Shown: positions 4,404-62,530 of the stretch, piece after piece
How positions within the stretch are numbered: the first letter of the stretch is position 1
Layout of the letters: the number at the start of each line of letters is the position of its first letter
IMG/VR virus record: IMGVR_UViG_3300016665_000824
Coordinates: 32,001 to 96,000 of that record
DNA: 64,000 nucleotides
Strand: one strand, 5' to 3'
Origin: a virus
Translations under genes and position numbers: made by a program
The notes under the pieces: model-generated
What the model saw: the letters and a program-made list of their open reading frames with translations, nothing else
Database searches by the model: none
What the model was told of the DNA's origin: nothing

Positions 4404-4472
4404 TGGCGCATCAAAAAGGCGATCGCTTTATTTAATGTGCGATCGCCTTTTTGATATTTAATTGTTGCGGAA

Positions 4473-5321: not shown

Positions 5322-5352
5322 GGTAACAAGGACTTGAGTCCTTGTTACCTTA
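5319..5352. terminator. Strong hairpin (15-bp stem, 4-nt loop) spanning the stop codons of two convergent genes
   Basis: TAAGGTAACAAGGAC-TTGA-GTCCTTGTTACCTTA; no flanking U-tract. Confidence 0.45.
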
Positions 5353-8300: not shown

Positions 8301-11300
8301 TCGTCTGCACGGAGAATCCCTGCATCTTGAAGGGCGTTAGCCGTTTCAAGCAACTCGCCCAACTTCGCCTTAAATAGCGCAGGATCTCCCGCAGACTTGT
8401 TTAAAGCGTCAAGGGCTGCATTATATTTTGAAGTTGCCTGCTCGATCGCATTACCAATACGAGGAAGATCAATAGCCTGAATTTGCAGGTTTACCGACTT
8501 GTAGGATTCTTGAAGTTTTCTAAGGGCTTCAAGTTCTCGATCTCTTTCTGCGTCTAAACCTTCTACAGCTTGAACCTGATTAATGATTGCCTCGATATTG
8601 TTGTTTCTTTCGGCGATCTCCTTCTTCTTATTCTCGATCTGAATATCAAAACGCGCAGCACCATCTTTGTCGCTTAGCGCTTCCGCCTTGGACTTTTCCT
8701 GCTCTAATTTAATTAAATCCTCTTGGAGTTTCTTCTGAGCAGACAGTCCTATTCCTAGATCAACCCGCCGAGAAGCTGACTGATTTAAGACGTTTTTATT
8801 ATCTTGCAATCTTATTTGGACGGCTTTCTCTTCAAGATTTCCTGCGCGATCGCCTAGACCTAACTTGTCGGAAGCGCCAAACGTTACCGTTCTTAGCCCC
8901 TCTCTTGCCGCGTCACCTGTAAGAGCAAAACCTTCTGTAACGCGAGTACCAATATTGTCTCTCTCTTTTTTAACCTTCTCCCTCAACGCGTCTTCGGAGT
9001 TGGTTGGTTTGCTTTGTAATCCCCTCAACTCTTTGAGTTTTGCGAGCTGTTGATCATACAGCTTTAAAGTGGGGTCATCTTGGAGGATGCTCTTGTCTTG
9101 GATTGAGGCAACATATTTTTCGCGTTCTGAGGTTAGGTTTGCTAGCTCAGAAGCGGCATCCTTTCCTTGCGATTTGTTTAGGATCGCAACCCTTGCGTCA
9201 CTATCTTTGAGCGCATCGTTGAGTTTGTCTACATTGGCTGTAGCTGCTTTTGTTTCCTGATCGACGTAGCCAACCAAGGTTGTTATTGCGGCGAAAGCTG
9301 CGCTTAACAATAATGTAGGACCAATTTCTGCGGCGAGGGCGGCGAAGGATTTGCTGATACCTTTGACATTCTCGGAAATAAACGAGGTAGCGCCTACAGC
9401 ACCCTTTTTGAGGTTTGAATAAAGTCCACCGACACTAACGTTCGCGTTTTGAGTGAAATCAGCAAAGCTAGACTTAGCTCGCGAGCCAAAATCTTTGACA
9501 CCAGAAAGAGCATCTTGGAAACCTGTCTTTAACCCAGCACCTAAATTTTTGAGGCTTAAATCGGGGAGAGAAATAGACTTGACTTGATTGACAAACTTAT
9601 CTATAGCGATACGAGAATTAGCCAAAGAAGCGGGAATATTTAGCTCTCTAAAGAACTTATCGAGTCCCAGTCTCGCGTTTGCAAGAGAGGTAGGGACGTT
9701 GATCTGGGAAAATGCTTTTTCAACCCCGTTGCGGAGGTTTACCAGCGAGGCAGGAATGTTGATATTTGCAAAGGCGTTCCGAATGCTAGCTTTAGTATTC
9801 TCAATTTGCGCGGGGAGATTTGCAAAGATACCAGTTTTTTGACTCGAATCCTGACTGAACCTTCCCTTAATGTCAGATATAAAACTACCAATAGAGTCGC
9901 CCAAGGACTTCAAAGAAGTTTTTGTCTTTGTGGCGATCGCTCCAATATCTTCTGCGAACTGTTTTGTGAACGGGACGGGAATTGGATTGGCAATAATCTG
10001 ACTTCGGAGCGACTTGATTCTGTCGGTAGTCTCCTGATAACTTTTAAGAGCCGCCGCACGAGCTTCGGGGGTTAACGACAGATCTGTAGAGTCTTTTTGG
10101 CTCACGATCGCCTGCTGTTTTAGTCCAGAGACCTCTCGTTTAGCGGCGACAACCTGAGTAGGATTTAGAGTCGTTGACTGAACTGGCTTGCCCCCAAGTA
10201 TTTCTCGAACACTATCGTTTAGCTTCTTGATGCGCCCAAAGGTTTCGCCAATACTGGCTCCAGCACCGCTAATTCCCGTGTTAATTGTCTTAAATACATT
10301 GGAGATTGTGCCACCAAACAGCTTGGTAACAGCGATCGCGATTAGCAATCCGCCAACTACTTTTTGAAAAGGATTGGAGTTCTCGCCAAAAGTAAAGAAC
10401 GGCAATATCGTGTCTGCAACCACCTTAATTACTGGTGCTAATACCGACCCTACCGTATCCGCAAACTTACGAATAGCTGCGGTTACATCCTGAATGATTT
10501 TTTGTAGACCTTTGTTCTTCAGGATTAACTGATCGAAGAAGACAAAACCAACAAATGTTCCAGCACCCAACAAGGCTGTTGATACGGCAAAAGACCTTGC
10601 CGCAGCTCCTGCCGCTTTTAATGAATTAGAGAAGATGCTGTTTACTTTCTCGGTATTTGTAGCGACATCGGCAAACTTGCCCAAGCTCTTGGCTGCGTCC
10701 GCAATCAACGGGCTAAACGAGCCAAATAGTTGGGACTTACCAACAATGCCTGAGAAAGCTGTTAAGGCGATCGGCGCTGCCTTCGTAAATCCTTGCAGTG
10801 CGGTTCCTAGCGCAGGAAATGCTTGAGTAAGTCCAATCAGTTTTACCCCAAAGCCACCTAGTGTTGGCAAAGCGGCAGTTATAACTCCCGCGAATGGCGA
10901 GAACGCACCGAGAACTTTGCCCAACTCTTTTTGGACTAAGCCAGCAGCACCAGGGATCTTGTTTAGATTCTCCGCCAACAACAGGAATCCAGCAGACCCT
11001 CGACCGACAACCGAACTTAAATTAGCAAAAGTGTTGACAACCCCGTTAGTACGCTTGTCAAGCAGGAAGAGAACTTCTCCCAAACCTGGTACAAGATTAA
11101 ACATCAACGAGAAGCCTTTGTTTAATGCCCCGATCGCGCCCGAAAGAACTTTTGCGCCGACGGAGATGCCGATCCAAATCCCTCCAAGAGGACCTACAAC
11201 ACCTGCAATTTGTTCAAACACATTAATAGCTGGCTGAACAACAGCAAGAGTAAGGCTCATCGCATCGGAAAAAGCCTTTACTGCGCCAGCGAGAGACTTG

Positions 11301-13780
11301 AATAGGTATTCTGGAACCTGCCCAAAGATCTGGAAGAATGGCCCCGCGAGACTTTTTAGGGTCGCAATCACGTTCTTGAATACGTCAAACAGTATTCCTG
11401 CGAGACTCCCTACTTGAGCAGCGATCGCGTCTTTATTCTTTGAGAAATACTGGTAAAACCCGTCAAGTTCCGCTACTAAAGGTGCGAGGAATTTCTCCCC
11501 AGCGAGTCTGCCGATCTCATCAACTAGCTCTTGAATATTGCTAACAATCCCACCCACGGACTGAGCAGCTAGCTTGTTTCCAGACTTAAATGCTTCTAAT
11601 CGACCTAAAAGCTCTTTGACGAAGGTTCCTTGAGACTTCCACTTAGCCACCATCTCATTGTTGAGGTTAAGCGATTTGGCAAGAGCTGAGTTTTGGTCAA
11701 TAGTTCCCGAAGTTATACTAACAACCTCTTGACGGGCTTGATATAAAGGTATGCCAAGCGTTCCGAGTGCGGCGGCGAACGAGGTTGTAATATTAGCAGC
11801 GTCATTCAAGGACGCGCCAATGTTGCTTGCCTGCCCAGCAACGATCTGAAAAACCCCGACAAGATCTTTACTGGTTACGCCGACCAGCTCTAACGAGTCT
11901 TTACGAATTTTATCGATCGCCCCTTCAACCGCAGGGCCAACCGCCTTGATCGCTTGAGTTGGATCTGATACGCGATCGCCATTAACTACGATTCTATTGG
12001 TTGCCGCTAAGCTCGCCTGAGTAGAGAGTAGTTGCTCTTGGAGCCTGATGTTTTGCCCAATCAACAGATCGAAAGGGCCGTTTTGTACAAATCCTTGGAG
12101 TGCCTGCAATCCCAATCCCAAGAAAGCAAGTCTCTGAGATACTTCAAAGATCGCGTTGGTTGCCTTGCCAGCACCTTCGCTAATTAGATTGAATACTTCT
12201 AGTGGTTCCGTCGCCCCCGCCACTGGAGCAACCACTGCGGCGGCAATATCTACAGGTTCTTGCAGCTTCGGGGCTATCTCTTGAGTCTTTTGAAACCCCT
12301 TAACGATAACATCATCAACACTATCGATGACAGTACCGACTTCGGCAAGGATTGTTGATCTCAGTCCATCAACAAAATTCTTACCTGCGATCGCGCCAGT
12401 ATCTTTTAAAAGCGAACTAAATGTTCCGCCAAAAAACTCGTCAATCTTGGTTGCAAGTTTTTGCAGTGAGCCATCCCCGCTTCCGATAGAATCAATCGCC
12501 GCGCCCAACCCTCCGTCAATAGCATCGACAGCTTTTAGGGCTAAATTCCTGAGAGGCGCAAGGATGCTAGTATCTTCTACGCTAAACAAGCTATTGAGAG
12601 CCTGTCCAACGCCTCCCTTTTGAGTCTCTATTAAAGGGCGGAGGATGGCAAAAGCGGATCTTAAATCCTCTGGAATTGCTTTTTCTAGTCCATTAAATAA
12701 CTGTCCAGACAACGCATTTCCAAAATCTTGCAACTCATTAGAGGCAACAATCGACCCCAAATTTGCCACCCCGATCTTGTTGGCAATCAGTTTTGCTAGT
12801 GGTGGTAGTGGCAACTTATCTACAAGCTGAGGGATTCGCCCCGCTAGGCGGTTGATCAGCTCAGATACAGAGCCGCCTAACTGTTCGTCAAGAATTTTAA
12901 ATTGATCGGTCGCCTCAGATCTGCTGCCGACGATTGCCCTGCCGACCGATCCTCCTAAAGCGCTAGATAAGCGCCCTACAACTCTTTGTCCGTCCTCAAC
13001 GTTTGGCGCGATTGCGTTAACGGCAAAAGCTTTAGCAGCACCCGATACCGACCCACCAGCCAACTGCTTCGACACTTCCGACAGCAATCCAGTTTTTGCC
13101 GCAGTCCGAAATGAGTTGGCGACAATTGAGGTTAAATCCGCCCCGAAAGCTTGGTTAACAATACCTTTTAAAGCGTCGGGGAGTCCTCCCCCAACAACGC
13201 CCGAAATGAGTGAGTCGGCGATCGCGTTATCTAGCGTTCCAGTAAAAGCCTCAACTCCCACTCCAAGCTTGCGCTGAATTTCTTGATTTAGCTTTGAAGC
13301 CCTAACATTTGCTTCTAACGCTTTACCGAAACTGTTTGCAGAATCGCTAAGTATCTGCGTAATTCTCTTGCCGTTATCCGAAAATATTGCAGACTGAGCT
13401 TGCTCTGCCGACTGCTTAGATAAGAATCCTCCTCCGACATCTTTTCCTGCAGAGGTAATCCCCTTGATTACCTTTGAGAGCGGAGCTAGTTTTGAAACTG
13501 CACTGTCGGCGACATTCGAGATCTGTTCTAAAAATATTTTGCCCGACTGCGTATCTAGTACATCTCGAACCGACTGAATTGCGTCTCTCAGCCCTCCAAA
13601 CGTGCCAATCGCGGTTGCCCCTACCGTGCTGATCGTTCCGCCAAGGGCTTGTACAGATCCCTTTGTTACGTCCGCAACAACACCAACACTTTTTAGACCA
13701 GCAGCTATCTCCGAAACTTGTTTGCTTGCTTGATCTTTCGCCTGTATTAAGATCTCAACAATATTGGTTTGCGGAGCCAT
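5345..13780 (-). CDS. Giant virion protein, tape-measure-like (tail length tape measure or ejection/internal virion protein)
   Basis: Uninterrupted 2811-aa ORF; Gly/Ala/Ser-rich hydrophobic N-terminal third, long E/K/Q/A/L-rich coiled-coil centre, internal tandem repeats, position between head and tail-fiber genes. Confidence 0.6.
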   Translation of the reverse strand: MAPQTNIVEILIQAKDQASKQVSEIAAGLKSVGVVADVTKGSVQALGGTISTVGATAIGTFGGLRDAIQSVRDVLDTQSGKIFLEQISNVADSAVSKLAPLSKVIKGITSAGKDVGGGFLSKQSAEQAQSAIFSDNGKRITQILSDSANSFGKALEANVRASKLNQEIQRKLGVGVEAFTGTLDNAIADSLISGVVGGGLPDALKGIVNQAFGADLTSIVANSFRTAAKTGLLSEVSKQLAGGSVSGAAKAFAVNAIAPNVEDGQRVVGRLSSALGGSVGRAIVGSRSEATDQFKILDEQLGGSVSELINRLAGRIPQLVDKLPLPPLAKLIANKIGVANLGSIVASNELQDFGNALSGQLFNGLEKAIPEDLRSAFAILRPLIETQKGGVGQALNSLFSVEDTSILAPLRNLALKAVDAIDGGLGAAIDSIGSGDGSLQKLATKIDEFFGGTFSSLLKDTGAIAGKNFVDGLRSTILAEVGTVIDSVDDVIVKGFQKTQEIAPKLQEPVDIAAAVVAPVAGATEPLEVFNLISEGAGKATNAIFEVSQRLAFLGLGLQALQGFVQNGPFDLLIGQNIRLQEQLLSTQASLAATNRIVVNGDRVSDPTQAIKAVGPAVEGAIDKIRKDSLELVGVTSKDLVGVFQIVAGQASNIGASLNDAANITTSFAAALGTLGIPLYQARQEVVSITSGTIDQNSALAKSLNLNNEMVAKWKSQGTFVKELLGRLEAFKSGNKLAAQSVGGIVSNIQELVDEIGRLAGEKFLAPLVAELDGFYQYFSKNKDAIAAQVGSLAGILFDVFKNVIATLKSLAGPFFQIFGQVPEYLFKSLAGAVKAFSDAMSLTLAVVQPAINVFEQIAGVVGPLGGIWIGISVGAKVLSGAIGALNKGFSLMFNLVPGLGEVLFLLDKRTNGVVNTFANLSSVVGRGSAGFLLLAENLNKIPGAAGLVQKELGKVLGAFSPFAGVITAALPTLGGFGVKLIGLTQAFPALGTALQGFTKAAPIALTAFSGIVGKSQLFGSFSPLIADAAKSLGKFADVATNTEKVNSIFSNSLKAAGAAARSFAVSTALLGAGTFVGFVFFDQLILKNKGLQKIIQDVTAAIRKFADTVGSVLAPVIKVVADTILPFFTFGENSNPFQKVVGGLLIAIAVTKLFGGTISNVFKTINTGISGAGASIGETFGRIKKLNDSVREILGGKPVQSTTLNPTQVVAAKREVSGLKQQAIVSQKDSTDLSLTPEARAAALKSYQETTDRIKSLRSQIIANPIPVPFTKQFAEDIGAIATKTKTSLKSLGDSIGSFISDIKGRFSQDSSQKTGIFANLPAQIENTKASIRNAFANINIPASLVNLRNGVEKAFSQINVPTSLANARLGLDKFFRELNIPASLANSRIAIDKFVNQVKSISLPDLSLKNLGAGLKTGFQDALSGVKDFGSRAKSSFADFTQNANVSVGGLYSNLKKGAVGATSFISENVKGISKSFAALAAEIGPTLLLSAAFAAITTLVGYVDQETKAATANVDKLNDALKDSDARVAILNKSQGKDAASELANLTSEREKYVASIQDKSILQDDPTLKLYDQQLAKLKELRGLQSKPTNSEDALREKVKKERDNIGTRVTEGFALTGDAAREGLRTVTFGASDKLGLGDRAGNLEEKAVQIRLQDNKNVLNQSASRRVDLGIGLSAQKKLQEDLIKLEQEKSKAEALSDKDGAARFDIQIENKKKEIAERNNNIEAIINQVQAVEGLDAERDRELEALRKLQESYKSVNLQIQAIDLPRIGNAIEQATSKYNAALDALNKSAGDPALFKAKLGELLETANALQDAGILRADEVAGAFQKVATNVSADRDLQIKAQEAITAAYKKEADRRIAIYDAQLSQIQALLATGRISESESIALSGQLEEKKIQAQSEADQKALRARQQILETNANEQKQQIKRDRELAEAQLAAATGDPSKIRQVREAQAPVLQGKIDDTSQQIKDAEARKKALQESISTGVAGDNAAEDVKKVTDELAVLQSRLNSLQSQKGTLDSTLKLSEDTQGQLEGITKQIEDGEKALSSLKAGNAETLQRFNTVKDAPFFNSSEYTAQIKAEQDAIAKKESELRTLQTKRDQLSSIAKPDAERQNLAKNSIADANKKELDLVKATAAQKARLEEDADNKRKDAEAKIAKARSERFVKGLDAQIKETLAAEKVGETQRLAQIAQLRKSGIKLESEIKLQETAERKRSITLELQLEQQKQKAIADLEKKGVGVSKETKNANLIKVAELSKQLAEAELAAIEGLVSAVRDRLVLESQKYAVTIEQQNLKLERQKLLFTALEKGLENQSRLSESANKLAQSTVALRESEFAALNKIYDRQQAAIRAAGGQGNFADLELEEKKLILAEKLAVLKLNSLKQQQKFEAESLEREIQKRDLLLERKKVENEIAIAKKKVDIASQDAAIKAAELEVKLRPQSEEAKLKLAQAKLGQEKNFLELGGLQQEKGFIADEAKVNEIVNKNDRQALANKQQGETNTAIGDVIGATRDPALQERLQREQLARLTQNTGTAALTTTDVSNAVAAASQPVNVRGASFKNPTSALLGQVEQGGVFTAAPEPKPDNAPFATSFEELAKKYPDKGMAGSFEELNKKYPAQANSFEELNAKYGGKPTEEAKPEQAIASSFDKLTQQIDEGFSKVLVAPDLKVKDLTAGLEAEFNRVSKQISENPVTLKIDDKAFEEAQKKLDKPIALLDEGQLQRAEALAQAFGSLGGKDLVPQQQGNPTGAALGTSGNITVNAPIAINTQSNISSAAGVGNDVQKAVNDTLNNVLRRVAGVTSGVR
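5872..6000 (-). repeat. Three imperfect tandem ~42-48-bp repeats near the 3' end of the giant ORF
   Basis: Encodes SFEELAKKYP / SFEELNKKYP / SFEELNAKYG. Confidence 0.65.
9581..9820 (-). repeat. Four tandem 60-bp (20-aa) repeats inside the giant ORF
   Basis: Encodes NIPASLVNLRNGVEKAFSQI / NVPTSLANARLGLDKFFREL / NIPASLANSRIAIDKFVNQV / NLPAQIENTKASIRNAFANI. Confidence 0.7.
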
Positions 13781-22875: not shown

Positions 22876-22968
22876 ATCGCTATTGTTTGATGCTCACAAG
22901 CAAACAGGCGATCGCTTGATGAATTAGCGATCGCCTGTTAGATCTCCTTGTACACATGGCACATGAGG

Positions 22969-26336: not shown

Positions 26337-27827
26337 CTATTTTCTAGTGGAACGAGCTAAGGGTTTGGAGTAGTTCTTGCCGTAGCGCTCGTTATTGCGT
26401 TCTGCGGCATCCTTCTTCTCCTCGGAATCTTTACGCTCAGTGCGACCAACCTTTACGGCGGTCTCTAGGCGATCTGCGTAGCTAGGCGCAGGAACAAGAG
26501 TTGCGTACTCAGCCGCGCTATCGAAACGGGCTTCGATGTAGCTATCGTTGCGATCGCTTAAATCAACTTCAGGATGAATAGCCTTCAGTGCAGCGCGACG
26601 AATCTCGGTGGAGTCCATCGTGGTTTCGATACCTGCATCCTCGATGTTGATACCCTTAGAGGTAAGAAGGTCGTGAGCCTTGCCAATTGCATCGAGGCGA
26701 TCGGCAGTCTGGCGATTGATTTCTTCAGCGAGGAATTCACGGACTTCATCGGAGTCAAGAACGACTGCCAACTCAGAAGAGTCCATCTTCTTGCCCTTCT
26801 TCATCTTTTTCTTGATGAAGTCAGGCATCTTGCTTTCACCCTCGGATTCCTCATCGTCAGGCTCGCCTTCGCCGTCTTCCTTGTCACCACAAGAAGCATC
26901 CTGACGGATAGTTTCGAGTTGAGTTAGGGTTTCGGTTAGCTCATCTTCAAGAGCGTCAGCACGACCCTTGGTGCGATTAACTTCGGAAGTAAGGTCGGCG
27001 ATCGCGTCAGCCTTCTCTTTGAGTTCAGCCTCAAGAGAATCCACGCGAGACTTATATTTAGATAGTTCTTCGAGTTTTTGCGACAGGGGGTAGAGCGCGA
27101 TGTCCTCCACCTGAAACTCGCCAGCGCCATCCACGCGCAATGTTTTTGTTTTCAAATCGGACATAGCGGAGCTACCCTCATTTTTAATTGTTGGAATAAC
27201 GACAACGCTGTTCGGAGCAGAGGCTTTAACTTGGATCGAGTCAAAGCGAACTAGCTCAACAACCTCATCCCCATCGGCATCGGCACTATCGAGGTGCATC
27301 CTCACAGTGCTCCCCCCGCGTGGGTTGTCAGTTGCGGCGCAATGGTCTGGTCGAATCTTGGTTTGAACACGGTCAAAATCGCCCCGATAGGTGATCTGGT
27401 CGATCGCGTCGAACCATTCGCCATTCGGGGCTTCTACGATTTCGCATTCATATCCAAGAGAAAGACCGTTCTTTTTGCCTGCCTTTACGGACTGGGCAAA
27501 ATCGGGGTTAGAGATTCGGGCAATATTCTGTACAACCCCCTCGTTATCGTTGTACTCACCCGCCCTTGTTAATTCACCAACAGCGCTATCTCGTTTTCCC
27601 CGCAATAGCGAAGATGGATGCTCGACAGTCATCGGCAATCCTTTTAGGGACTCAAGGAAATCGCGATCGCGGTTTGCCGAAGCAGGTCGCAATTCACGAA
27701 CTCGCTTTCCGTCACCTCGAAAGTATGTCAATATGCCGTCTCGACAAACCGTGCTGTACGCATACAGCCCGTCCGCACGTTCTTCAGTGCGGGTCGCGAA
27801 ACTTACGTCATCAAAACGAAATGCCAT
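26337..27827 (-). CDS. Putative head maturation protease/scaffolding protein
   Basis: 496 aa; globular N-terminal half, coiled-coil and strongly acidic C-terminal half typical of scaffold; precedes capsid genes. Confidence 0.45.
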   Translation of the reverse strand: MAFRFDDVSFATRTEERADGLYAYSTVCRDGILTYFRGDGKRVRELRPASANRDRDFLESLKGLPMTVEHPSSLLRGKRDSAVGELTRAGEYNDNEGVVQNIARISNPDFAQSVKAGKKNGLSLGYECEIVEAPNGEWFDAIDQITYRGDFDRVQTKIRPDHCAATDNPRGGSTVRMHLDSADADGDEVVELVRFDSIQVKASAPNSVVVIPTIKNEGSSAMSDLKTKTLRVDGAGEFQVEDIALYPLSQKLEELSKYKSRVDSLEAELKEKADAIADLTSEVNRTKGRADALEDELTETLTQLETIRQDASCGDKEDGEGEPDDEESEGESKMPDFIKKKMKKGKKMDSSELAVVLDSDEVREFLAEEINRQTADRLDAIGKAHDLLTSKGINIEDAGIETTMDSTEIRRAALKAIHPEVDLSDRNDSYIEARFDSAAEYATLVPAPSYADRLETAVKVGRTERKDSEEKKDAAERNNERYGKNYSKPLARSTRK

Positions 27828-41552: not shown

Positions 41553-43208
41553 TTATTTGAGTCGTCCCTCAACCCACATCTTAGCAAAGGGAGAGTCCAA
41601 ATCCTTAAACAACCGAGAAGCAATTTCTACAGCCGAAACGGAATCCTGTTTAACACCTTCTTCGGGAGGTGTATCTGCTTGACCCTGATCTGCACCTTGA
41701 TCGCCAAAGTAGTCGCCACCTTGATCGCCGCCATATCCCTGTAGAGCTGCAAGCTCTTGTTGCTGCTTGGCTAATTCTTCATCCTGCTTCAGTTTTTCCC
41801 ACGCTTCCTTATCGAGAGAGACCTCATAGGAGTACTCTGTTCCACCGTAGAGGCTAGCGCGAACTTCATCCTTAGTAATTGCTCCCGACTGGGTTTGCAG
41901 AGCGATAAGCATATTAGTGTGAGCAGTTTGGTTGGCTACTTCATCTTTGCGACTCTCTACATAGAGGGGTTTAAACTTATAAGACCATCCTTCAGGGATC
42001 TTACCCTTCGTAGGGCCATCTTGAGCGAGCCAAATATACTTGTAAAGCATATCCAACTTGCGGTGGCGATAATTCTGCTCTTGATAGGCAGCAACGGTCT
42101 TTGACCAAACCTGATCTTCGGTTTCTCCAGTACCACCTGCCGCTAACCCTTTTGGTCCACGCCCAAAGATCATTGTGTAAGGAATCCCCACCGCAGCAAC
42201 CAAATCTTCTTGAAAGCTCGCTTTCATGTCGGACAAGCCTTGGTAGTTCCGCACTAGATAAGTAAGGTCATCTTCCGAGTCTACCGACACCGCCCCCAGC
42301 TTCCGCATCTGCATCTTCATGGCGCGAAACTGTTCTGAAAGAATGGTTAAAGCTTTTGGCACTCCATTGGTAGTGGCAGCTCCACCAGCAGCTTTTTCTT
42401 GGGCAAGATTTTGTTTGATCAGGTTTTGCAGGTTCTTCATCTTGTGGAGAAGAATCGTGTGATCTTGAATCATCTCCGCCATTGCGTCGGAGACTTTTGT
42501 GTAGCGAGCAATTTCTTTGAGTGCTGAGACGATTAGCGGATCGCCCCATCCACCCGTCGATCGCAACAATCTTGGAGGTAATCGAGAACCATCAAATCGA
42601 ATAATCCGCGATTTGTGAATTAAGTTGAACGAGGTGTAGTTTGAGCCTAACTTATCTATCTTGGATTTCGATTCTTGGGAGTAAAAGACCTGATAAAAGT
42701 CGGGGTCATCAGAGGGTGCATCAAGGTTTGGGAAATACGGGCGGATATCCTGCGGGTCAAGCTCGTAGATACCCTTGATGGTTTTAATTTTTGCCGTGTT
42801 AACTGGCTCGTTTGGGGGTAGCCCATCATCGATATTGACGAGAATAGCTGCGCCGCCATAAATATTCGCTAGCCAGTCAGCCTTATTAAATTTGTATTTC
42901 GCTTCTATCCTTTCTTCGTACTGTTCAAAGGCTGTGGCAATCTTGCGATCAGTGTCCTTAACTAAGCTAATCTCAGTCCATTTTCTTGTTGCCTCGTCAG
43001 GAAACACCGAGACAATTTTCTTTCCTAGCCAGTCCCTAGATAGTTCTTCGAGGGCTTTGTAGCTTAGTCTGCGCCGATCGCCTGTGCTATTCATCCCCAG
43101 ATCATTCTGAGCGAGCAGGTTGTTGTTGTACTCAGCCTCATAGAGCGCATCGATAATGGCTCCGTCTTGTCTCACATAGACTTCGGGATAATCTGTTTCT
43201 TTGGACAT
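41553..43208 (-). CDS. Putative portal protein
   Basis: 551 aa; no Walker A, so not terminase large subunit; Gly/Asp-rich acidic C-terminal tail; AVGIPYTMIFGRG segment; structured 5' leader. Confidence 0.45.
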   Translation of the reverse strand: MSKETDYPEVYVRQDGAIIDALYEAEYNNNLLAQNDLGMNSTGDRRRLSYKALEELSRDWLGKKIVSVFPDEATRKWTEISLVKDTDRKIATAFEQYEERIEAKYKFNKADWLANIYGGAAILVNIDDGLPPNEPVNTAKIKTIKGIYELDPQDIRPYFPNLDAPSDDPDFYQVFYSQESKSKIDKLGSNYTSFNLIHKSRIIRFDGSRLPPRLLRSTGGWGDPLIVSALKEIARYTKVSDAMAEMIQDHTILLHKMKNLQNLIKQNLAQEKAAGGAATTNGVPKALTILSEQFRAMKMQMRKLGAVSVDSEDDLTYLVRNYQGLSDMKASFQEDLVAAVGIPYTMIFGRGPKGLAAGGTGETEDQVWSKTVAAYQEQNYRHRKLDMLYKYIWLAQDGPTKGKIPEGWSYKFKPLYVESRKDEVANQTAHTNMLIALQTQSGAITKDEVRASLYGGTEYSYEVSLDKEAWEKLKQDEELAKQQQELAALQGYGGDQGGDYFGDQGADQGQADTPPEEGVKQDSVSAVEIASRLFKDLDSPFAKMWVEGRLK

Positions 43209-43257
43209 ATTCAGTGGCGATCGCGTATGTCCATCTGACAGGCGATCGCCACTGAAT
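43209..43257 (-). promoter_or_regulatory. 16-bp-stem hairpin directly upstream of the portal-like gene start codon
   Basis: ATTCAGTGGCGATCGC...GCGATCGCCACTGAAT ending 1 nt from ATG at 43208. Confidence 0.45.
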
Positions 43258-47508: not shown

Positions 47509-48202
47509 GTAAAGCCTTGATAGACTTGGCGTGTTTAGCAGGTGCTAGGGTAACAACACCACTAGCACTTGCGGCGGTGGGTTGAGCACCGTCGAAGGAC
47601 TGGAAGTCCACGCTGACTTGGAAGTAAGCATCGGCATCACCAGAAACACCAGCATTGATATTGGTGGTAAAGATCTTGCCGTAGTTGGGTACACCGCTCG
47701 CAGCCGTCGCAACGGTCGTACTGGAAATTGTAAAAGATGTGCCAGTCTCGGTAACAGCGATCGTGTGGGCTTGACCAGGAACTACCGAGGTTACGGTAAT
47801 CGTGTAAGGACTAGCGACAGAAGCGGTGCTGGCGTAGAGATAAGGATTGAGGTTGATTAGAGCCAAGACAATTTCGATTACATCAGCAAGGCTGTCGCCA
47901 GACTGAACCGTGTAAGTCAACTCGCGAGTCTTGGGAGATCCAGAACCGTCGGTTGCCGAGACAATAACAGTGTCGCCTGCGGTAGGAGATGTTGCGGCAA
48001 TAGTAAAGGTGGAAACTTGAGCGATCGCGCTAGGGTTGAAAGATAGGTAGTGGTCAACTGTGTTGCGCTTGTTGGAGCCTACAAAGTTGACACTAGTTTG
48101 AGCGGTCAGAGGCAGTGTTGTAGGGGTCGAAGTGGTCGCGGTTTGACCGTAAGTAATCGAAGATACTGCTTGAGCCGAAGCTTCGGGGCTGTAGGAAGGC
48201 AT
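47489..48202 (-). CDS. Thr/Ser/Ala-rich putative virion structural protein
   Basis: 237-aa ORF, first gene after 150-bp intergenic region. Confidence 0.45.
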   Translation of the reverse strand: MPSYSPEASAQAVSSITYGQTATTSTPTTLPLTAQTSVNFVGSNKRNTVDHYLSFNPSAIAQVSTFTIAATSPTAGDTVIVSATDGSGSPKTRELTYTVQSGDSLADVIEIVLALINLNPYLYASTASVASPYTITVTSVVPGQAHTIAVTETGTSFTISSTTVATAASGVPNYGKIFTTNINAGVSGDADAYFQVSVDFQSFDGAQPTAASASGVVTLAPAKHAKSIKALRAARGV

Positions 48203-48351
48203 TGAAAGTAATCCTCATGAGGGAATCCCCCGATACTTTCAGTTAAATAAGAAGGCTGTTTTTTTTTAGAGGAATTAGCGAATGTTATTCCCTATTTACC
48301 CTCGTTCTTGAGGTAGAATTACTTCAATCGATAACAAGCAGGGGTCTTCAC

Positions 48352-48630
48352 TTGGTGATTACGCAACAACTACGGGGGCTAGAAAGCTTCCTGTCGGAAC
48401 TATGCCCGTCACACGGATCTGGAATTGAATTAACTTCGATAGGCGATCGCGTCGTTAAAATTGCGTGTCAATACGAGGGTCACGCAAGAATTATTAGTGA
48501 TCTGCTAAAGCTGCAAAAAAACATAGCCAAGCTCGAAGGGCTTGGCTATGAAAAAGCAATAATTGTCTTTGCCAGCGCGACAAAGAAAGAAGTTATCTTG
48601 ACCGTAGAGACCTGTGACTATCTTCCCTGA
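48352..48630 (+). CDS. Small hypothetical protein
   Basis: 92-aa ORF. Confidence 0.3.
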   Translation: MVITQQLRGLESFLSELCPSHGSGIELTSIGDRVVKIACQYEGHARIISDLLKLQKNIAKLEGLGYEKAIIVFASATKKEVILTVETCDYLP

Positions 48631-49471
48631 TTGGCTCAAAGCCTAGTGGCGTTGCTAGCAGCTCCGCCACTGAATAGGGATCTCCATTCTCTTTCTTAAG
48701 GACTTCGAGCTTTGCTAGTTGCTTAACAATGCTCCTGATTTGTCCTAGATAAGAGCTTTCAGAGATTTTGTTTATGATCAGTTCTAGCTCCATCCTCACA
48801 AAGTTTTGTCCATCTTCGTTCATCTGATCGACTAGCGATCGCAGAACCCCGTCTTGAGTTATTCCTCTTAACGTCATTTGCTCTCTAACGTACTTACTCA
48901 GCAAGTCAGAGATGGTTGTCTCGGATTCCATGCGGTTTTCTTTTGTAGGTATTGTCTTCGACTCTATAGCCTCGACCTTCTTCCGCGAGTCGGCGGAAGG
49001 CGCTTTACTGGCAACTATTAGCGGGATCTCCTTCCTTATCCACGCATTTTTGGGTAGTTTGCCATCATCATTCGTGTCTAAATAATCAAAAACGTTGTAA
49101 TCCGAATCCACACTTCCCGTCATACAGAAGAGGAGGAATAATTTAGTCCAAGCTTCGTTCACTTTCGAGTCAGAATATCTTTGTTCTATTTCAAATCCGC
49201 GAGCCATCTCAGTAAGCTCCCCCCGCAGCCTTTCCTGAGCGGAAAATCTGTCCTTAGCTGTCAAGTTTGTGCCGTCTAGTTTGAGCAGATAGATAATAAA
49301 CTGCTGCATGTAATTACCAAACTCCGCTTGGCTCATTACCATTACATCTTTACGATAGCGCGAGAACCATCTTGAAAATGCCTTAGATCGAATTTTTGTT
49401 CTAGGGTCGTCCTTCCCCTTCTTGAGACTGCCTTGCTTTTCTTTGTCTTTCACCATAGTTGCCGAAGGCAT
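48593..49471 (-). CDS. Hypothetical protein with basic N-terminus
   Basis: ATG at 49471 (MPSATM) preferred over TTG at 49495; divergent from plus-strand genes. Confidence 0.45.
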   Translation of the reverse strand: MPSATMVKDKEKQGSLKKGKDDPRTKIRSKAFSRWFSRYRKDVMVMSQAEFGNYMQQFIIYLLKLDGTNLTAKDRFSAQERLRGELTEMARGFEIEQRYSDSKVNEAWTKLFLLFCMTGSVDSDYNVFDYLDTNDDGKLPKNAWIRKEIPLIVASKAPSADSRKKVEAIESKTIPTKENRMESETTISDLLSKYVREQMTLRGITQDGVLRSLVDQMNEDGQNFVRMELELIINKISESSYLGQIRSIVKQLAKLEVLKKENGDPYSVAELLATPLGFEPIREDSHRSLRSR

Positions 49472-49487
49472 AATTTTCCTCTTGTTT

Positions 49488-49498
49488 TGCCACAAAAT
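49488..49498 (+). promoter_or_regulatory. TGCCACAAAAT half-site motif
   Basis: One of three exact copies of the 11-mer (49488, 49613, reverse at 61932). Confidence 0.4.
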
Positions 49499-49522
49499 TA
49501 AAACATTTTTACGTTATATATG

Positions 49523-49573
49523 GTATCCTTATGAGGTGTCCATATATTGGATCAAATCCTAGTATAAGGATAC
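49523..49573. promoter_or_regulatory. Nested palindromes in divergent intergenic region (candidate operator)
   Basis: GTATCCTTAT...ATAAGGATAC 10-bp inverted repeat around TCCATATATTGGA and GGATCAAATCC palindromes. Confidence 0.4.
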
Positions 49574-49595
49574 ACCAAAAAACGGAAAAACGAGT

Positions 49596-50051
49596 ATGTC
49601 TAACTCTAGTTCTGCCACAAAATTGGCGATCGCAAGATTAAAAGGATCTGACCTGCCTATTTTTGTTCCAGTTTCAGTCTCTGAGAAAGTCGCAACCCTA
49701 GTCAGGGAGTGTATTTTACAGTCCGACAGTTTAAAGATATTAAAAGTTACTACTACAGTTTACAACGAGCTTACTAAGCATTTAAAGCAGTACGAAAAGC
49801 CAAAATATACCATTCCTCAGTATCTTTTGATGCTCCTATATACGGTTTCTACTACTTCAGAATTGATCGAAAAACACAACAAGGGTTTAATTTCAGATGA
49901 CGAGTTTATTAACTGTATCAAAAACAACAAAAACGCAAACGGGACTAAAACCTCCCGCAAAATGGGTCGGAAGAAAGCAAGCGTTGATGCCAGCGATCGC
50001 GCAGTACTTCCCCGCGAGGTTCACAAAAGAACCAGTTCCAAGGTTTCTTGA
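49596..50051 (+). CDS. Hypothetical protein; 3' end overlaps methyltransferase start
   Basis: 151-aa ORF; ~155-nt overlap with next gene in another frame. Confidence 0.35.
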   Translation: MSNSSSATKLAIARLKGSDLPIFVPVSVSEKVATLVRECILQSDSLKILKVTTTVYNELTKHLKQYEKPKYTIPQYLLMLLYTVSTTSELIEKHNKGLISDDEFINCIKNNKNANGTKTSRKMGRKKASVDASDRAVLPREVHKRTSSKVS

Positions 50052-50814
50052 TTTCAAAAAGGGTGTCGGCAATTTCCACGACCCTTTCGTTGGTACTGGT
50101 AGTGCATTTTTGTATTTTGCGGATGGATTTCGAGGCGATCGCAAGATTTTTATTAGTGACAGTAATCCTGAACTCATTAATATTTGGCTGTGCATTCAAG
50201 CCGATCCTCTAAGGCTTTTAAGATCCTTGCTTGAATACAAGCGCCCTGTATTTAACAGCGCCGAATCGTACTATCACGAAAGGCAGATCTTCAATCAGCA
50301 GTTTAAAGGTTCTTACGACTACGAGCTAGCAGCAAGAATGATCTACTTAATTCAGGCTGGTTTCAATAGCCTATGGAGGGTTAACAGCGACGGTGAAATG
50401 AACACGCCTTTTGGCTCTCAGAAGCAAATTGCCCTTCTTACCGAGAATGATTTGACCGCGCTTTCGGTTCTCCTTCAAAAAGCGACAATCAAACATCAGC
50501 CTTTTGAAGAGTCGCTAAAAGATGTACAACCCAATGATGTCGTCTATCTCGACCCGCCATACATTGAAGTCAAAAAGAATTCCTTCAATAAATACACCAC
50601 AAAAGGTTTTAGCAGAGAGCAGCAGATACTCCTCCGCCAAGAAGCCGATCGCCTGCACGATCTAGGCGCTTATGTATACGCCAGTAATAGCGATACCCCC
50701 TTGAGTCGCGAAATTTGGTCGGGCTGGAAAATCGCAGAACTGACGAGATCGGGCTGCATGAACTCAGATGCAACCAAGCGTCAACGGGTTGGAGAGTTGT
50801 TATTTTATAAATAA
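49897..50814 (+). CDS. dam: DNA N6-adenine methyltransferase, Dam (D12) class
   Basis: KWVGRK N-terminal motif, FVGTGS motif I, VYLDPPY motif IV. Confidence 0.8.
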   Translation: MTSLLTVSKTTKTQTGLKPPAKWVGRKQALMPAIAQYFPARFTKEPVPRFLDFKKGVGNFHDPFVGTGSAFLYFADGFRGDRKIFISDSNPELINIWLCIQADPLRLLRSLLEYKRPVFNSAESYYHERQIFNQQFKGSYDYELAARMIYLIQAGFNSLWRVNSDGEMNTPFGSQKQIALLTENDLTALSVLLQKATIKHQPFEESLKDVQPNDVVYLDPPYIEVKKNSFNKYTTKGFSREQQILLRQEADRLHDLGAYVYASNSDTPLSREIWSGWKIAELTRSGCMNSDATKRQRVGELLFYK

Positions 50815-51418
50815 AAAAAGCCAGTCGCGGGACTGGCTACAGGTAAAACAACAAAAGACAACTAAGCGGAAATCAACATATACCGAGCATTTGTGGAGAA
50901 CAGCTCAGGCACTTATGGATATTAGCACAGAATTAAAACAAATCACTGTGAGATCGATGCGAGGAGGCAGCTTTTCGTTCGGTCCTCACGATATTCGAGT
51001 CGATCGCGGGTCGATCTTAGGCAATCCCTACGAGATGGCGAAAGATGAATCCAATCGCGATCGCGTATGCCTTGCCTACAAGCACTGGCTATTTGCAAAT
51101 ATTCGGTACTGGCTGGACATGAAAGAAAAAGGCATTGCAAAGGCTCTCTGGTGGCATATCGATCCAAAGAGCATAGCGATCGCCTCGGATTTAAGAATTG
51201 CTCCGTCGTGGAAGCAGTTCACTGTTGCTCAGGTGGAGAGTGAATTTACTCGCCTCTGCTATGAAGCAACCCAGCACGATATCAACCTCATTTGCTGGTG
51301 CTTTCCAAAAGCTTGCCATGCGGATGTACTGCGAGCAGCCTTGATCTGGTACTACGAGGAGCATTACTTAAAGGAGTGCTCACGGATTGAAACGACTATT
51401 AAAGAATTTTTTAGGTAA
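50768..51418 (+). CDS. DUF4326-like small protein (real start probably ~50908-50956)
   Basis: GSILGNPY and LICWCFPKACHADVL motifs recalled from DUF4326-type proteins; N-terminal part of track ORF spans a hairpin. Confidence 0.4.
   Translation: MQPSVNGLESCYFINKKSQSRDWLQVKQQKTTKRKSTYTEHLWRTAQALMDISTELKQITVRSMRGGSFSFGPHDIRVDRGSILGNPYEMAKDESNRDRVCLAYKHWLFANIRYWLDMKEKGIAKALWWHIDPKSIAIASDLRIAPSWKQFTVAQVESEFTRLCYEATQHDINLICWCFPKACHADVLRAALIWYYEEHYLKECSRIETTIKEFFR
50819..50838 (-). terminator. Terminator-like hairpin oriented for the minus strand
   Basis: AGCCAGTC-GCGG-GACTGGCT preceded by A7 on plus strand (U7 after hairpin on minus); directly after Dam stop. Confidence 0.35.
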
Positions 51419-52230: not shown

Positions 52231-52437
52231 ATGGATATCGAAGAACTTGTTGCCGCAGCATCCGTAAGTCGGCATATATATCTTGAGCGCGTCGGCAAAG
52301 GTAGGCTACCAAAAGGATTTCCCTGTGGTGAGCTAATGTGCGTTAATTCGGACGGCAACCGAACTTATTTATTTGATTCGGCGAAAGTCTTAAAGTGGTG
52401 TCGAAAGCAAAATAATCAGGCGATCGCGGAGGAATAA
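52231..52437 (+). CDS. Small hypothetical protein
   Basis: 68 aa, abuts neighbours. Confidence 0.4.
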   Translation: MDIEELVAAASVSRHIYLERVGKGRLPKGFPCGELMCVNSDGNRTYLFDSAKVLKWCRKQNNQAIAEE

Positions 52438-52703
52438 TGCGAAAAATAGACAAGGACTACAGTTTTACAGAACGAGAGATTCAGGCGTTAATGTTGATAT
52501 GCACTATTGGACGAGAAGACTGGCTCACTAAAGAGGTGAAGGAGATATTGTCGCAATACATAAGCAGAAAGATGTATCACAGGACTGCTTCTCAAGTCTT
52601 TGCTCACAGAAAAAGAGTTCTGGGTTCTTTCCCTAGCAATGCGGGTAAATACTTACTTGAAAGGCGAACTAGCTTTATTGAGCGATCGCGGAGGAGTGAG
52701 TAA
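52437..52703 (+). CDS. Small hypothetical protein
   Basis: 88 aa; stop lies in bidirectional terminator. Confidence 0.4.
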   Translation: MRKIDKDYSFTEREIQALMLICTIGREDWLTKEVKEILSQYISRKMYHRTASQVFAHRKRVLGSFPSNAGKYLLERRTSFIERSRRSE

Positions 52704-52753
52704 AAATATAAAAAGACGATCCGACGTGAGATCGGATCGTCTTTTTATATTTT
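52703..52753. terminator. Bidirectional intrinsic terminator
   Basis: 22-bp stem AAAATATAAAAAGACGATCCGA / TCGGATCGTCTTTTTATATTTT between convergent small-gene array and primase. Confidence 0.65.
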
Positions 52754-60983: not shown

Positions 60984-61559
60984 AAAAACACACAAAATTA
61001 CAACAAAACTATGCAAGAAGAAATCTCACAACAGGAAATCGCTGCGATCGCAGCCGCAAAACTGAAAAGAATGCAGCGATCGCAACAACAAGAGCCGATA
61101 ACGAAGGTCGAGCCAAAAACTCCAAGTCCCGCACCAGCAAAACAGTCAAAATCAGCAACAAACAGCTACTGGAACAAACCTCAAAGCAGCATCGACATCG
61201 TGAAAAACCCCAAGCACGTTGCCGATATTTACACCATGACCCCGTGGATACCCCAGCCACAGGTAGATGATATCTGCGCGATCGCCGAAAGACCCTACGG
61301 CGACTGGATAGACCTCGAAGCGCAGCATATCGAAGGCAAGTGGGATAGGCAAAGATTCATTGAGTCAGCCTATAACTGGCCTTTCCGCGCCAAGATGCGA
61401 TGTGTTGAAATTTCTGAGGACGGACTGATGGCAACAGTATCCGTCTCAGGAGTCCGCAAACGATTACCACTAGTGTGTTTATGGGAGATGAATGAAATAG
61501 TTGACACTATGACTAATAGTGAGTATGATGAATCTTGGTTTCAGGTAAGACAATTATGA
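60978..61559 (+). CDS. Hypothetical protein
   Basis: 193-aa ORF; 3' end contains consensus promoter for next gene. Confidence 0.5.
   Translation: MGKNTQNYNKTMQEEISQQEIAAIAAAKLKRMQRSQQQEPITKVEPKTPSPAPAKQSKSATNSYWNKPQSSIDIVKNPKHVADIYTMTPWIPQPQVDDICAIAERPYGDWIDLEAQHIEGKWDRQRFIESAYNWPFRAKMRCVEISEDGLMATVSVSGVRKRLPLVCLWEMNEIVDTMTNSEYDESWFQVRQL
61501..61529 (+). promoter_or_regulatory. Sigma70-type promoter, consensus TTGACA-17-TATGAT (copy 1)
   Basis: TTGACA 61501-61506, 17-nt spacer, TATGAT 61524-61529; ATG at 61556. Confidence 0.6.
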
Positions 61560-61870
61560 CAAAGACTTTAATCTGTAGAGAGATTAAGTGCCTGTATTTC
61601 GACGTTTCAGACCCAATGAGTTCTGGTTGTAAATTCTACGAAAGCGCTCGTCAATGTCACCTACTGTCTGGGATGCTTTCTACTGAAAAGACAGCACTGG
61701 CGACTGACTACGAAATAATTGCTGAAGATTTGTATACGGCTGAAGACCTGATCAGGGTTGAAAACGATTTTTACATTAAATGTTCTGAAAAGTATTTACG
61801 CGATTGTGAGCTTCAGGGGCTTACACCTGAACCCGTAAGAGAAAATGTTCGAGCATGGTTTCGTAGATGA
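61556..61870 (+). CDS. Cys-containing small hypothetical protein
   Basis: ATG at 61556 preferred over TTG at 61535. Confidence 0.5.
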   Translation: MTKTLICREIKCLYFDVSDPMSSGCKFYESARQCHLLSGMLSTEKTALATDYEIIAEDLYTAEDLIRVENDFYIKCSEKYLRDCELQGLTPEPVRENVRAWFRR

Positions 61871-61957
61871 CTCCAGCAACTAAAGCAAGATTCACAAATA
61901 GGCGATCGCCTTCTCTGCCTCGTTTTTTAACATTTTGTGGCAGTTAAAAGAAAATGT

Positions 61958-61986
61958 TTGACAGTATGCCTAGTAGTGTGTATGAT
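61958..61986 (+). promoter_or_regulatory. Sigma70-type promoter, consensus TTGACA-17-TATGAT (copy 2)
   Basis: TTGACA 61958-61963, 17-nt spacer, TATGAT 61981-61986; ATG at 62012; ~65 bp similar to copy 1. Confidence 0.6.
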
Positions 61987-62011
61987 GGTATTTAGTTTCA
62001 GGTAAAACAAT

Positions 62012-62530
62012 ATGACGAATAGCTTGGCTGTGACCTACCAATCGCTCCCACAGAAAGAACAGCTTGAGATACTAGCAGGAGTATCACACCTTATGATAAA
62101 GGTAATGGCAGGTAAAATCCCAACAACAGAAGAGATGGACTTGGCTTCAAAAGCCCAGACCCATCCAAGCCTATTTTTAAAATGCTTCTCTGCCGAACTT
62201 ATGGGAGAGGAGTGGAGACCAAAGCTATTGCCTCAAGGCGGAGAAGGGTATATTATTCGCTGGAAATCCGATGAATACGAAGAGGTAGAGACCGACTCCT
62301 ATCCCTTTAAAAAGAGGGTTTACAAAGAAGAGGGCAATGGACTTGAAATCCAAAGCTACGAGCAGGCGATCGCCAATTGTGAATTTCTAAATAAGCAATA
62401 CCCAGAGAGGACTTACTGGCACTTCTGGGTAAACCAAGACATCCTCAACAACGCAGAAAGCGAGGGTCTTCAACTCATAGACACTGTTGCTCAGCATCTC
62501 TTTGAGGCTCTATCACAGGCTCATGGTTAG
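62012..62530 (+). CDS. Hypothetical protein
   Basis: 172-aa ORF preceded by duplicated consensus promoter. Confidence 0.55.
   Translation: MTNSLAVTYQSLPQKEQLEILAGVSHLMIKVMAGKIPTTEEMDLASKAQTHPSLFLKCFSAELMGEEWRPKLLPQGGEGYIIRWKSDEYEEVETDSYPFKKRVYKEEGNGLEIQSYEQAIANCEFLNKQYPERTYWHFWVNQDILNNAESEGLQLIDTVAQHLFEALSQAHG

Follow-up and report, generated by a model that had tools for sequence, protein, structure and literature searches.

A conserved control region with a candidate promoter and palindromic sites between divergent genes of a putative cyanophage

This study examined the 124-bp spacer at positions 49472-49595 of the window, the 64-kb stretch of viral DNA that was analyzed. The results revealed that the spacer is a real, selectively maintained region of the promoter/operator type, the mechanism of which we infer. 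Judging from the sequence, it is a conserved control region in which a probable promoter is accompanied by palindromic sites, and the most likely explanation, which we advance only tentatively, is that these sites serve as operators for a protein. The functional dyad most likely differs from the 10-bp inverted repeat that the initial annotation of this DNA had emphasized.

Genomic setting and conservation of the spacer

The window forms part of a 134-kb metagenome contig. Its virion genes for a portal protein (41553-43208) and a head protease (26337-27827) are both directed leftward, and its right side encodes a DnaG primase and a DnaB helicase. The HIP1 octamer GCGATCGC is frequent in the window; on our own reading of the sequence and general knowledge, this abundance presumably points to a cyanobacterial host. 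The portal, protease, primase, and helicase genes, together with the richness in HIP1, indicate that the window derives from an uncultured tailed cyanophage. The primase is only approximately 30% identical to those of unrelated phages. Neither the 3.2-kb region nor the 96-bp core had a DNA match to isolated phages or plasmids, a 237-aa neighboring protein also had no match in isolated phages or plasmids, and no tRNA or tmRNA was found in the window. Several other features of the window were recorded. Perfect hairpins at 4410-4455, 22903-22939, and 43209-43257 carry the HIP1 octamer in their stems, and a 2811-aa ORF of the virion-side module (5345-13780, minus strand) had no PHROG match. Between a small rightward ORF and the leftward primase gene lies a perfect 22-bp inverted repeat that is flanked on either side by T-runs (52703-52753); this inverted repeat between convergent genes is probably a bidirectional terminator.

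The initial annotation had placed the interval between divergent genes, and this was borne out: the 124 bp constitute the exact gap between two back-to-back ORFs, from the ATG at 49471 of the leftward ORF to the ATG at 49596 of the rightward ORF. The left gene (292 aa; 48593-49471, minus strand) was identified in both the ORF list and the gene call, and a 300-aa ORF with a TTG start is its upstream extension. The left protein was represented by seven protein clusters (53-100% identity), had no Pfam or PHROG match, and yielded an uninformative AF2 model (pLDDT 40). The right gene (151 aa; 49596-50051, plus strand) is the first gene of a Dam-methylase/DUF4326 operon, with the D12 adenine methyltransferase and DUF4326 genes directly 3' of it. 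The AF2 model of its product was a helical bundle (pLDDT 62) with no specific structural match; the family of this protein is tiny, and both flanking proteins define tiny families. The spacer separates the leftward virion-side block from the rightward block of the Dam-methylase, DUF4326, and replication side. Two readings of the methyltransferase ORF are possible: one of 305 aa (49897-50814), which overlaps the right gene by 155 nt, and one of 234 aa (50110-50814), which is that of the public gene call. A conserved ORF of 77-93 aa (48352-48630, plus strand) converges on the 292-aa gene, the last 38 nt or so of which it overlaps; it occurs in every relative with the 292-aa gene and is absent where that gene is absent.

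We compared 13 distinct versions of the spacer from related metagenomic contigs, the window included (window, L002, L004, L007, L008, L011, L014, L023, L027, L028, L031, L032, and L033). The divergent gene pair was found in all related contigs, the flanking proteins of the relatives were 47-82% identical to those of the window, and the spacer measured 116-129 bp where both genes were present. The mean pairwise identity of the spacer was 0.69, compared with 0.47-0.51 at third codon positions and 0.68-0.71 at first positions. Among five genomes, the identity of the spacer was 0.79 and that of its core 0.86, compared with 0.67 for the neighboring intergenic region. The identity above that of third codon positions clearly marks the spacer as functional DNA under strong purifying selection. 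The L023 lineage lacks the 292-aa gene and an adjacent 92-aa gene, and the core element remains upstream of the right gene. Because the element accompanies the right gene even in the absence of the left one, it belongs with the rightward unit. The L023/L024 lineage (JGI 3300046328 Ga0456310_0000015 and a Logan contig) has a 177-bp spacer, which is a fusion of two neighboring control regions, and an IS605 OrfB/TnpB-type gene approximately 3 kb to the right.

Dyad symmetry in the spacer

The initial annotation had reported a high density of dyad symmetry, and all of the motifs that it named were found in place. These are TGCCACAAAAT (49488-49498); a perfect 10-bp inverted repeat formed by GTATCCTTAT (49523-49532) and ATAAGGATAC (49564-49573), with arms 31 bp apart; and the inner palindromes TCCATATATTGGA (49539-49551; block B3), with 4-bp arms TCCA and TGGA around TATAT, and GGATCAAATCC (49549-49559), with 4-bp arms GGAT and ATCC. 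The symmetry exceeded chance: a perfect inverted repeat of at least 10 bp occurred in approximately 1.7% of 2000 Markov-shuffled 124-mers (P≈0.017), and the z-scores of the spacer fold were -3.9 (DNA, plus strand), -3.6 (RNA, plus strand), and -3.3 (RNA, minus strand). In the window, both inner palindromes are individually weak, with arms of just 4 bp. At the position of TCCATATATTGGA, four relatives carry the perfect 10-bp palindrome CCATATATGG, and L033 carries the perfect 16-bp palindrome CATCAATATATTGATG. A small ORF in the spacer was considered and rejected because the ATG in CCATATATGG is not conserved and, by our own reading, the frames differ among relatives.

A repeat search revealed three features that had not been listed: an 8-bp perfect repeat, ATATATGG/CCATATAT (49516-49523 and 49540-49547); a 27-nt extension of the 10-bp inverted repeat at 78%; and a 21-nt direct repeat (49479-49499 and 49604-49624), the second copy of which lies inside the right gene. 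A second copy of TGCCACAAAATT (49613-49624, plus strand), 125 bp away from the first one, falls in codons 6-10 of the right gene; the GCCACAA within it is conserved in relatives but also encodes Ala-Thr-Lys/Arg.

In the sequence comparison, the best-supported dyad is not the 10-bp repeat but a 32-bp near-palindrome, Pal-A (49516-49547; center at 49531/49532), which is a candidate operator. It reads ATATATGG-tat-CCTTA/TgAGG-tgt-CCATATAT, with 12 of 16 pairs formed in the window, and its outer arms were found by the repeat search and RNAalifold. The inner palindrome CCTTATGAGG (49527-49536), which is CCTTATAAGG in relatives, forms its center. Across 12 versions, 79% of the Pal-A cells were paired, and pair 8-25 was never broken, being G-C in eight versions and A-T in the other four. 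Two-sided changes affected 11 cells, compared with 6.1 in shuffles (1/500), and the covariation was 0.183, compared with 0.140 in shuffles (2/500) and with lower values in all slid controls; the 13 versions represent only a few lineages, and these values count few independent events. In L031, the palindrome is perfect over 30 bp, TATATGAATCTCTTA/TAAGAGATTCATATA, and is built from a different half-site. Dyad symmetry that is maintained while the sequence changes is as a protein-binding control region predicts.

The 10-bp repeat, which had been presented as the headline unit, did not hold that place. It showed no covariation above shuffles and is lost in the most divergent relatives, with 6 of 10 pairs in L014 and, by our own reading, approximately 4 of 8 core pairs in L033. 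Its left arm overlaps the left half of Pal-A, which it joins to the right half of the second dyad, and it looks like a by-product of the half-site ATCCTTA/TAAGGAT occurring in both dyads. The left arm GTATCCTTAT with at most one mismatch was not enriched across the window (4 occurrences versus 3.05 expected). The second dyad, Pal-B (ATCCT-agtata-AGGAT; 49556-49571), was identified from alignments and folds; it is ATCCTTA-N3-TAAGGAT in L007 and L011, and an unrelated GGGG/CCCC dyad takes its place in L027, L028, and L031. The half-sites are 0 bp apart in one dyad and 3 bp apart in the other, a difference that is awkward for a single dimeric binder.

Two further observations concern Pal-A and its central motif. 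L027, L028, and L031, which carry a 113-aa version of the right gene, have a 13-14-nt duplication of the left half of Pal-A (GCATATGGTACTCT / TATATGAATCTCT) that moves the palindrome downstream of the predicted start and away from the ATGGTA box. The pattern CCTYATRAGG occurs at only two sites in the window, 49527-49536 and 48213-48222. The latter is a perfect palindrome, CCTCATGAGG, approximately 10 nt upstream of the ATG of the leftward 237-aa gene; it overlaps the likely Shine-Dalgarno sequence (GAGGA) of that gene and is conserved in every relative, including L014 and L023. An operator shared with this neighboring spacer was rejected, the Smith-Waterman similarity being nonsignificant (p≈0.24), and the 48213-48222 site is no more than a weak lead to a related operator copy.

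The candidate promoter and competing explanations

A rightward sigma-70-type promoter in the spacer is probable on the basis of its hexamers and their spacing. The motif TGCCACAAAAT is better read as the -35 box of this promoter, which it probably is, than as an operator: the -35-like hexamer TTGCCA (49487-49492, plus strand) lies inside it. With at most one mismatch, TGCCACAAAAT occurs 7 times in the window versus 1.5 expected, a count that none of 100 shuffles reached. The -10-like hexamer TACGTT (49510-49515, plus strand) follows the -35 box after 17 bp, and rightward transcription is predicted to start at the GG at 49522-49523, 7-8 nt after the -10 box. The -35 variants TTGCCA, TTAACA, and TTGAAA are each one base off TTGACA, at different positions; the hexamer has a 5/6 match in 12 of the 13 versions, and L023 lacks it at this position. 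The distance between the two boxes is exactly 17 bp in 11 of the 13 versions despite differences in the sequence between them, and the T-tract that flanks TTGCCA on its far side is not of the same length in all versions. In 8 of the 13 versions, the pair was the top plus-strand PWM site. TACGTT is a weak -10 box, with a 3/6 match to TATAAT, and it takes the forms TACGTT, TACATT, TACGTC, and TGCGTT among relatives; A2 is lost in L031 and L023 and T6 in L011 and L028. A stricter consensus promoter scan did not report the TTGCCA-17-TACGTT pair. L033 lacks TACGTT and has a different -35/-10 pair a few bp away, and the promoter is absent as such in L023.

Downstream of the -10 box, the ATGGTA at the predicted start is invariant except in L014 (ATGATA) and L033 (ATGGCA). 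Block B5, AAGGATACAC (49566-49575, plus strand), lies 18-20 nt before the ATG of the right gene; its AAG and TACAC are invariant in 12 versions, and L033 has TACCAC. An A-rich variable leader (49576-49595, plus strand) with no clear Shine-Dalgarno sequence follows. The left gene has a Shine-Dalgarno sequence, GAGGA (49477-49481, minus strand), 5 nt before its ATG, and CCTCTT is conserved in the alignments. A weak candidate for a leftward -10 box, TATACT (49561-49566, minus strand), was identified with low confidence; it scored 3-6.5 bits by PWM in five versions and had a poor -35 box.

Elsewhere in the window, two near-identical promoter-plus-leader cassettes (61501-61560 and 61958-62014), 457 bp apart, each precede a rightward ORF start. 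They consist of TTGACA-17-TATGAT followed by ...TTTCAGGTAA.ACAAT..ATGAC and match sigma-70 better than any other site in 20 kb. One more exact copy of TGCCACAAAAT, the third (61932-61942, minus strand), lies approximately 20 bp upstream of the 61958 cassette; no relatives of the 172-aa protein adjoining this site were found in viral contigs.

In the operator explanation, a host-type sigma-70-like promoter (TTGCCA, 17 bp, TACGTT; start at G49522/49523) would point rightward, and the palindromes would be sites at which a dimeric or tetrameric protein, encoded by the phage or its host, binds double-stranded DNA. Pal-A abuts the -10 box and covers the predicted start. By occupying the -10 box and the first transcribed bases, such a protein would either prevent rightward transcription or set its timing, and it would probably also affect leftward transcription because the sites lie between both genes.

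The regulated switch with many operators that the initial annotation had proposed stands in part. The purifying selection and the dyad symmetry kept through sequence change speak for it. Against it, no neighbor was recognizable as a DNA-binding regulator: neither the flanking proteins nor the small ORFs nearby had a match to a DNA-binding family. An nhmmer search revealed no further copy of the element in the 64 kb, and only a 5-7-bp half-site recurs inside the spacer; phage repressors usually have several operators, and the single copy counts against the operator model. Nothing was found that speaks for or against a temperate (lysis/lysogeny) switch; the ORFs tested included no detectable integrase or repressor. 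Within the rightward operon, a 68-aa ORF (52231-52437, plus strand) has, by eye, an excisionase/MerR-type helix-turn-helix look (..AAASVSRHIYLERVGKGRLP..YLFDSAKVLKW..); it had no Pfam match up to an E-value of 10 and is a lead for a possible regulator.

It is possible, although unlikely, that the dyads act in RNA. An mRNA starting at approximately 49522 would have a 74-nt leader with a 5'-terminal stem, GUAUCCUUAU/AUAAGGAUAC, that encloses one or two hairpins and either protects the transcript from 5'-end-dependent decay or sets translation of the right gene, which lacks a Shine-Dalgarno sequence. The base of the stem falls on the predicted start, the distance from the 3' end of the stem to the AUG is a constant 18-20 nt, and the leader of the window has a stable fold (z -3.4). 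In L027, L028, and L031, the leader forms a closed three-way structure (z -2.5 to -3.9) in which the second hairpin has an unrelated sequence; a 13-nt duplication allows the closing stem to surround both hairpins, and one compensatory change from C-G to U-A occurs in the closing stem of this lineage. However, the closing stem shows no excess of covariation over shuffles, its pairing falls away in L014 and L033 as described for the 10-bp repeat, and the leaders of L014 (z +1.4) and L033 (z -0.2) are unstructured, the range extending from -3.9 (L031) to +1.4. Primary-sequence conservation is equal in loops and stems, Pal-A begins upstream of the predicted start, and a scan of 48000-51000 against Rfam at E-values up to 1 returned nothing relevant, so that a known RNA family was rejected. 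The mismatches provide a further indication. In the 10-bp stem, they are A.C rather than G.T (G.U in RNA) on the plus strand, at 8:3, and in Pal-A, G.T and A.C are equal, at 11:11. Across the few independent lineages compared, this balance in Pal-A and the A.C excess in the stem carry no wobble signature of a plus-strand RNA, and, taken together, the observations favor double-stranded DNA recognition over RNA.

Slightly less probable than an RNA leader is the explanation that the spacer contains core promoters only, in which two overlapping divergent promoters, with similar elements on opposite strands, AT-rich -10-like boxes, and conserved start regions, would produce the symmetry as a by-product with no dedicated regulator. 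The fixed spacing of the conserved -35/-10 pair is consistent with this explanation, as are the ATGGTA/TACCAT conserved in 11 of the 13 versions, which is -10-like on the minus strand, the weak TATACT/TATAGT site on the minus strand, and the failure to find a regulator among the neighboring proteins. Nevertheless, no convincing conserved leftward -35/-10 pair was found, and promoter hexamers do not explain a 30-32-bp palindrome kept with a changed half-site or the perfect 16-bp palindrome of L033. The clear promoters of this phage, at 61501 and 61958, also look quite different.

It is improbable that the spacer is a replication origin or some other element based on DNA structure (a cruciform, or a priming or packaging signal) at the module junction. 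Under this explanation, the AT-rich palindromes would be an unwinding or initiator-binding region. The element is indeed AT-rich, palindrome-dense, single-copy, and conserved, and it borders the part of the genome that holds the replication genes; the turning point of the cumulative GC skew lies a few kb away at most, and TTTGCCACA is identical at 8 of 9 positions to TTTTCCACA, which we take to be the cyanobacterial DnaA box. However, DnaA-box-like sites were neither enriched nor clustered (10 versus 19 expected), and the box-like sequence is lost in L014, L027-31, and L033, while the likeness to a -35 box stays. No iteron arrays or tandem repeats were found, and the skew minimum, at approximately 42-46 kb, is explained by the change in gene orientation.

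We consider equally improbable a toggle in which the left arm (49523-49532) pairs with either the right half of Pal-A or the distal AAGGATAC box, alternatives that arise from the shared half-site, so that a DNA cruciform or alternative RNA leader folds would flip expression between the virion side and the replication side. In L027, L028, and L031, the 13-nt duplication separates the two pairings, and both can form at once. If true, the toggle would be a new cis-regulatory device of an uncultured cyanophage group that operates without a classical repressor.

Other candidates were rejected. A phage-wide promoter or operator consensus had no other copy in the 64 kb; Dam control was rejected on the grounds that the GATC at 49550 is absent from the relatives; and the cyanobacterial LexA, NtcA, and CRP motifs, compared by eye, did not match consistently among the relatives. 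When GTDB genomes were scanned with an exact pattern for host or chromosomal copies, 6 matches were obtained, compared with approximately 7 expected by our own estimate. Two of these, in Xenococcaceae, were similar by eye and are most likely due to chance, one having an E-value of 0.38 and the other being undetected by nhmmer. The two Xenococcaceae MAGs (L021, 4686-4731; L022, 4332-4378) have an element of approximately 60 nt in common, cttatggg....GGTATCCTTATCCGAAGGTGTC...AAAGGATACACCTGCGG, in different intergenic contexts. This element had no Rfam match and could be a small RNA or a dispersed repeat; its likeness to the phage element is probably due to chance.

Relation to known systems and significance

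The PRM/PR-OR region of lambda-type phages is the divergent promoter/operator region of an early-control module. The present spacer is similar in that it is short, separates back-to-back genes where two modules meet, and has dyads that overlap the promoter and start, and it is more conserved than synonymous sites. Unlike the lambda-type region, it has no detectable adjacent pair of a helix-turn-helix repressor and Cro and lacks a triplet of related operators, and no further operator region was found in the 64 kb; the dyad here spans 30-32 bp, compared with 14-20 bp for typical operators, and we found no evidence of a temperate phage.

In lac O1 and LexA boxes, the operators lie at or downstream of the start site, and the palindrome here similarly covers the -10-proximal and first transcribed parts of a sigma-70-type promoter. 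Its sequence fits neither the cyanobacterial LexA, NtcA, and CRP motifs, compared by eye, nor the DnaA motif, compared by search. Bacterial and phage mRNAs of the ompA leader type carry stabilizing stem-loops at the 5' terminus. Here too, a stem could form at the very 5' end predicted for the transcript, and the A-rich region for ribosome loading that comes after it is unstructured; in contrast to the ompA leader, this stem is not kept in the most divergent relatives and has no wobble or covariation signature.

The C-box of methyltransferase operons has the form GACT/AGTC, which the palindromes here do not resemble. Regulation of methyltransferase operons by C-boxes and controller proteins is mentioned in PMC12707154. 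As in such systems, a small ORF precedes a DNA methyltransferase gene downstream of palindromic sites; unlike in them, the small protein here has no detectable helix-turn-helix, and no restriction gene is evident.

Of the two intergenic regions that we compared among relatives, this spacer holds the most constrained noncoding DNA. The concept of a promoter that is combined with palindromic operators and lies between divergent genes is textbook knowledge, and the value of the present finding is local to this phage group: the element is of an ordinary kind, here in an unstudied group. To our knowledge, almost nothing is known about the timing of gene expression in freshwater cyanophages outside the T4- and T7-like groups, and this spacer, at the boundary between the structural and DNA-metabolism modules, is a precise, testable target.
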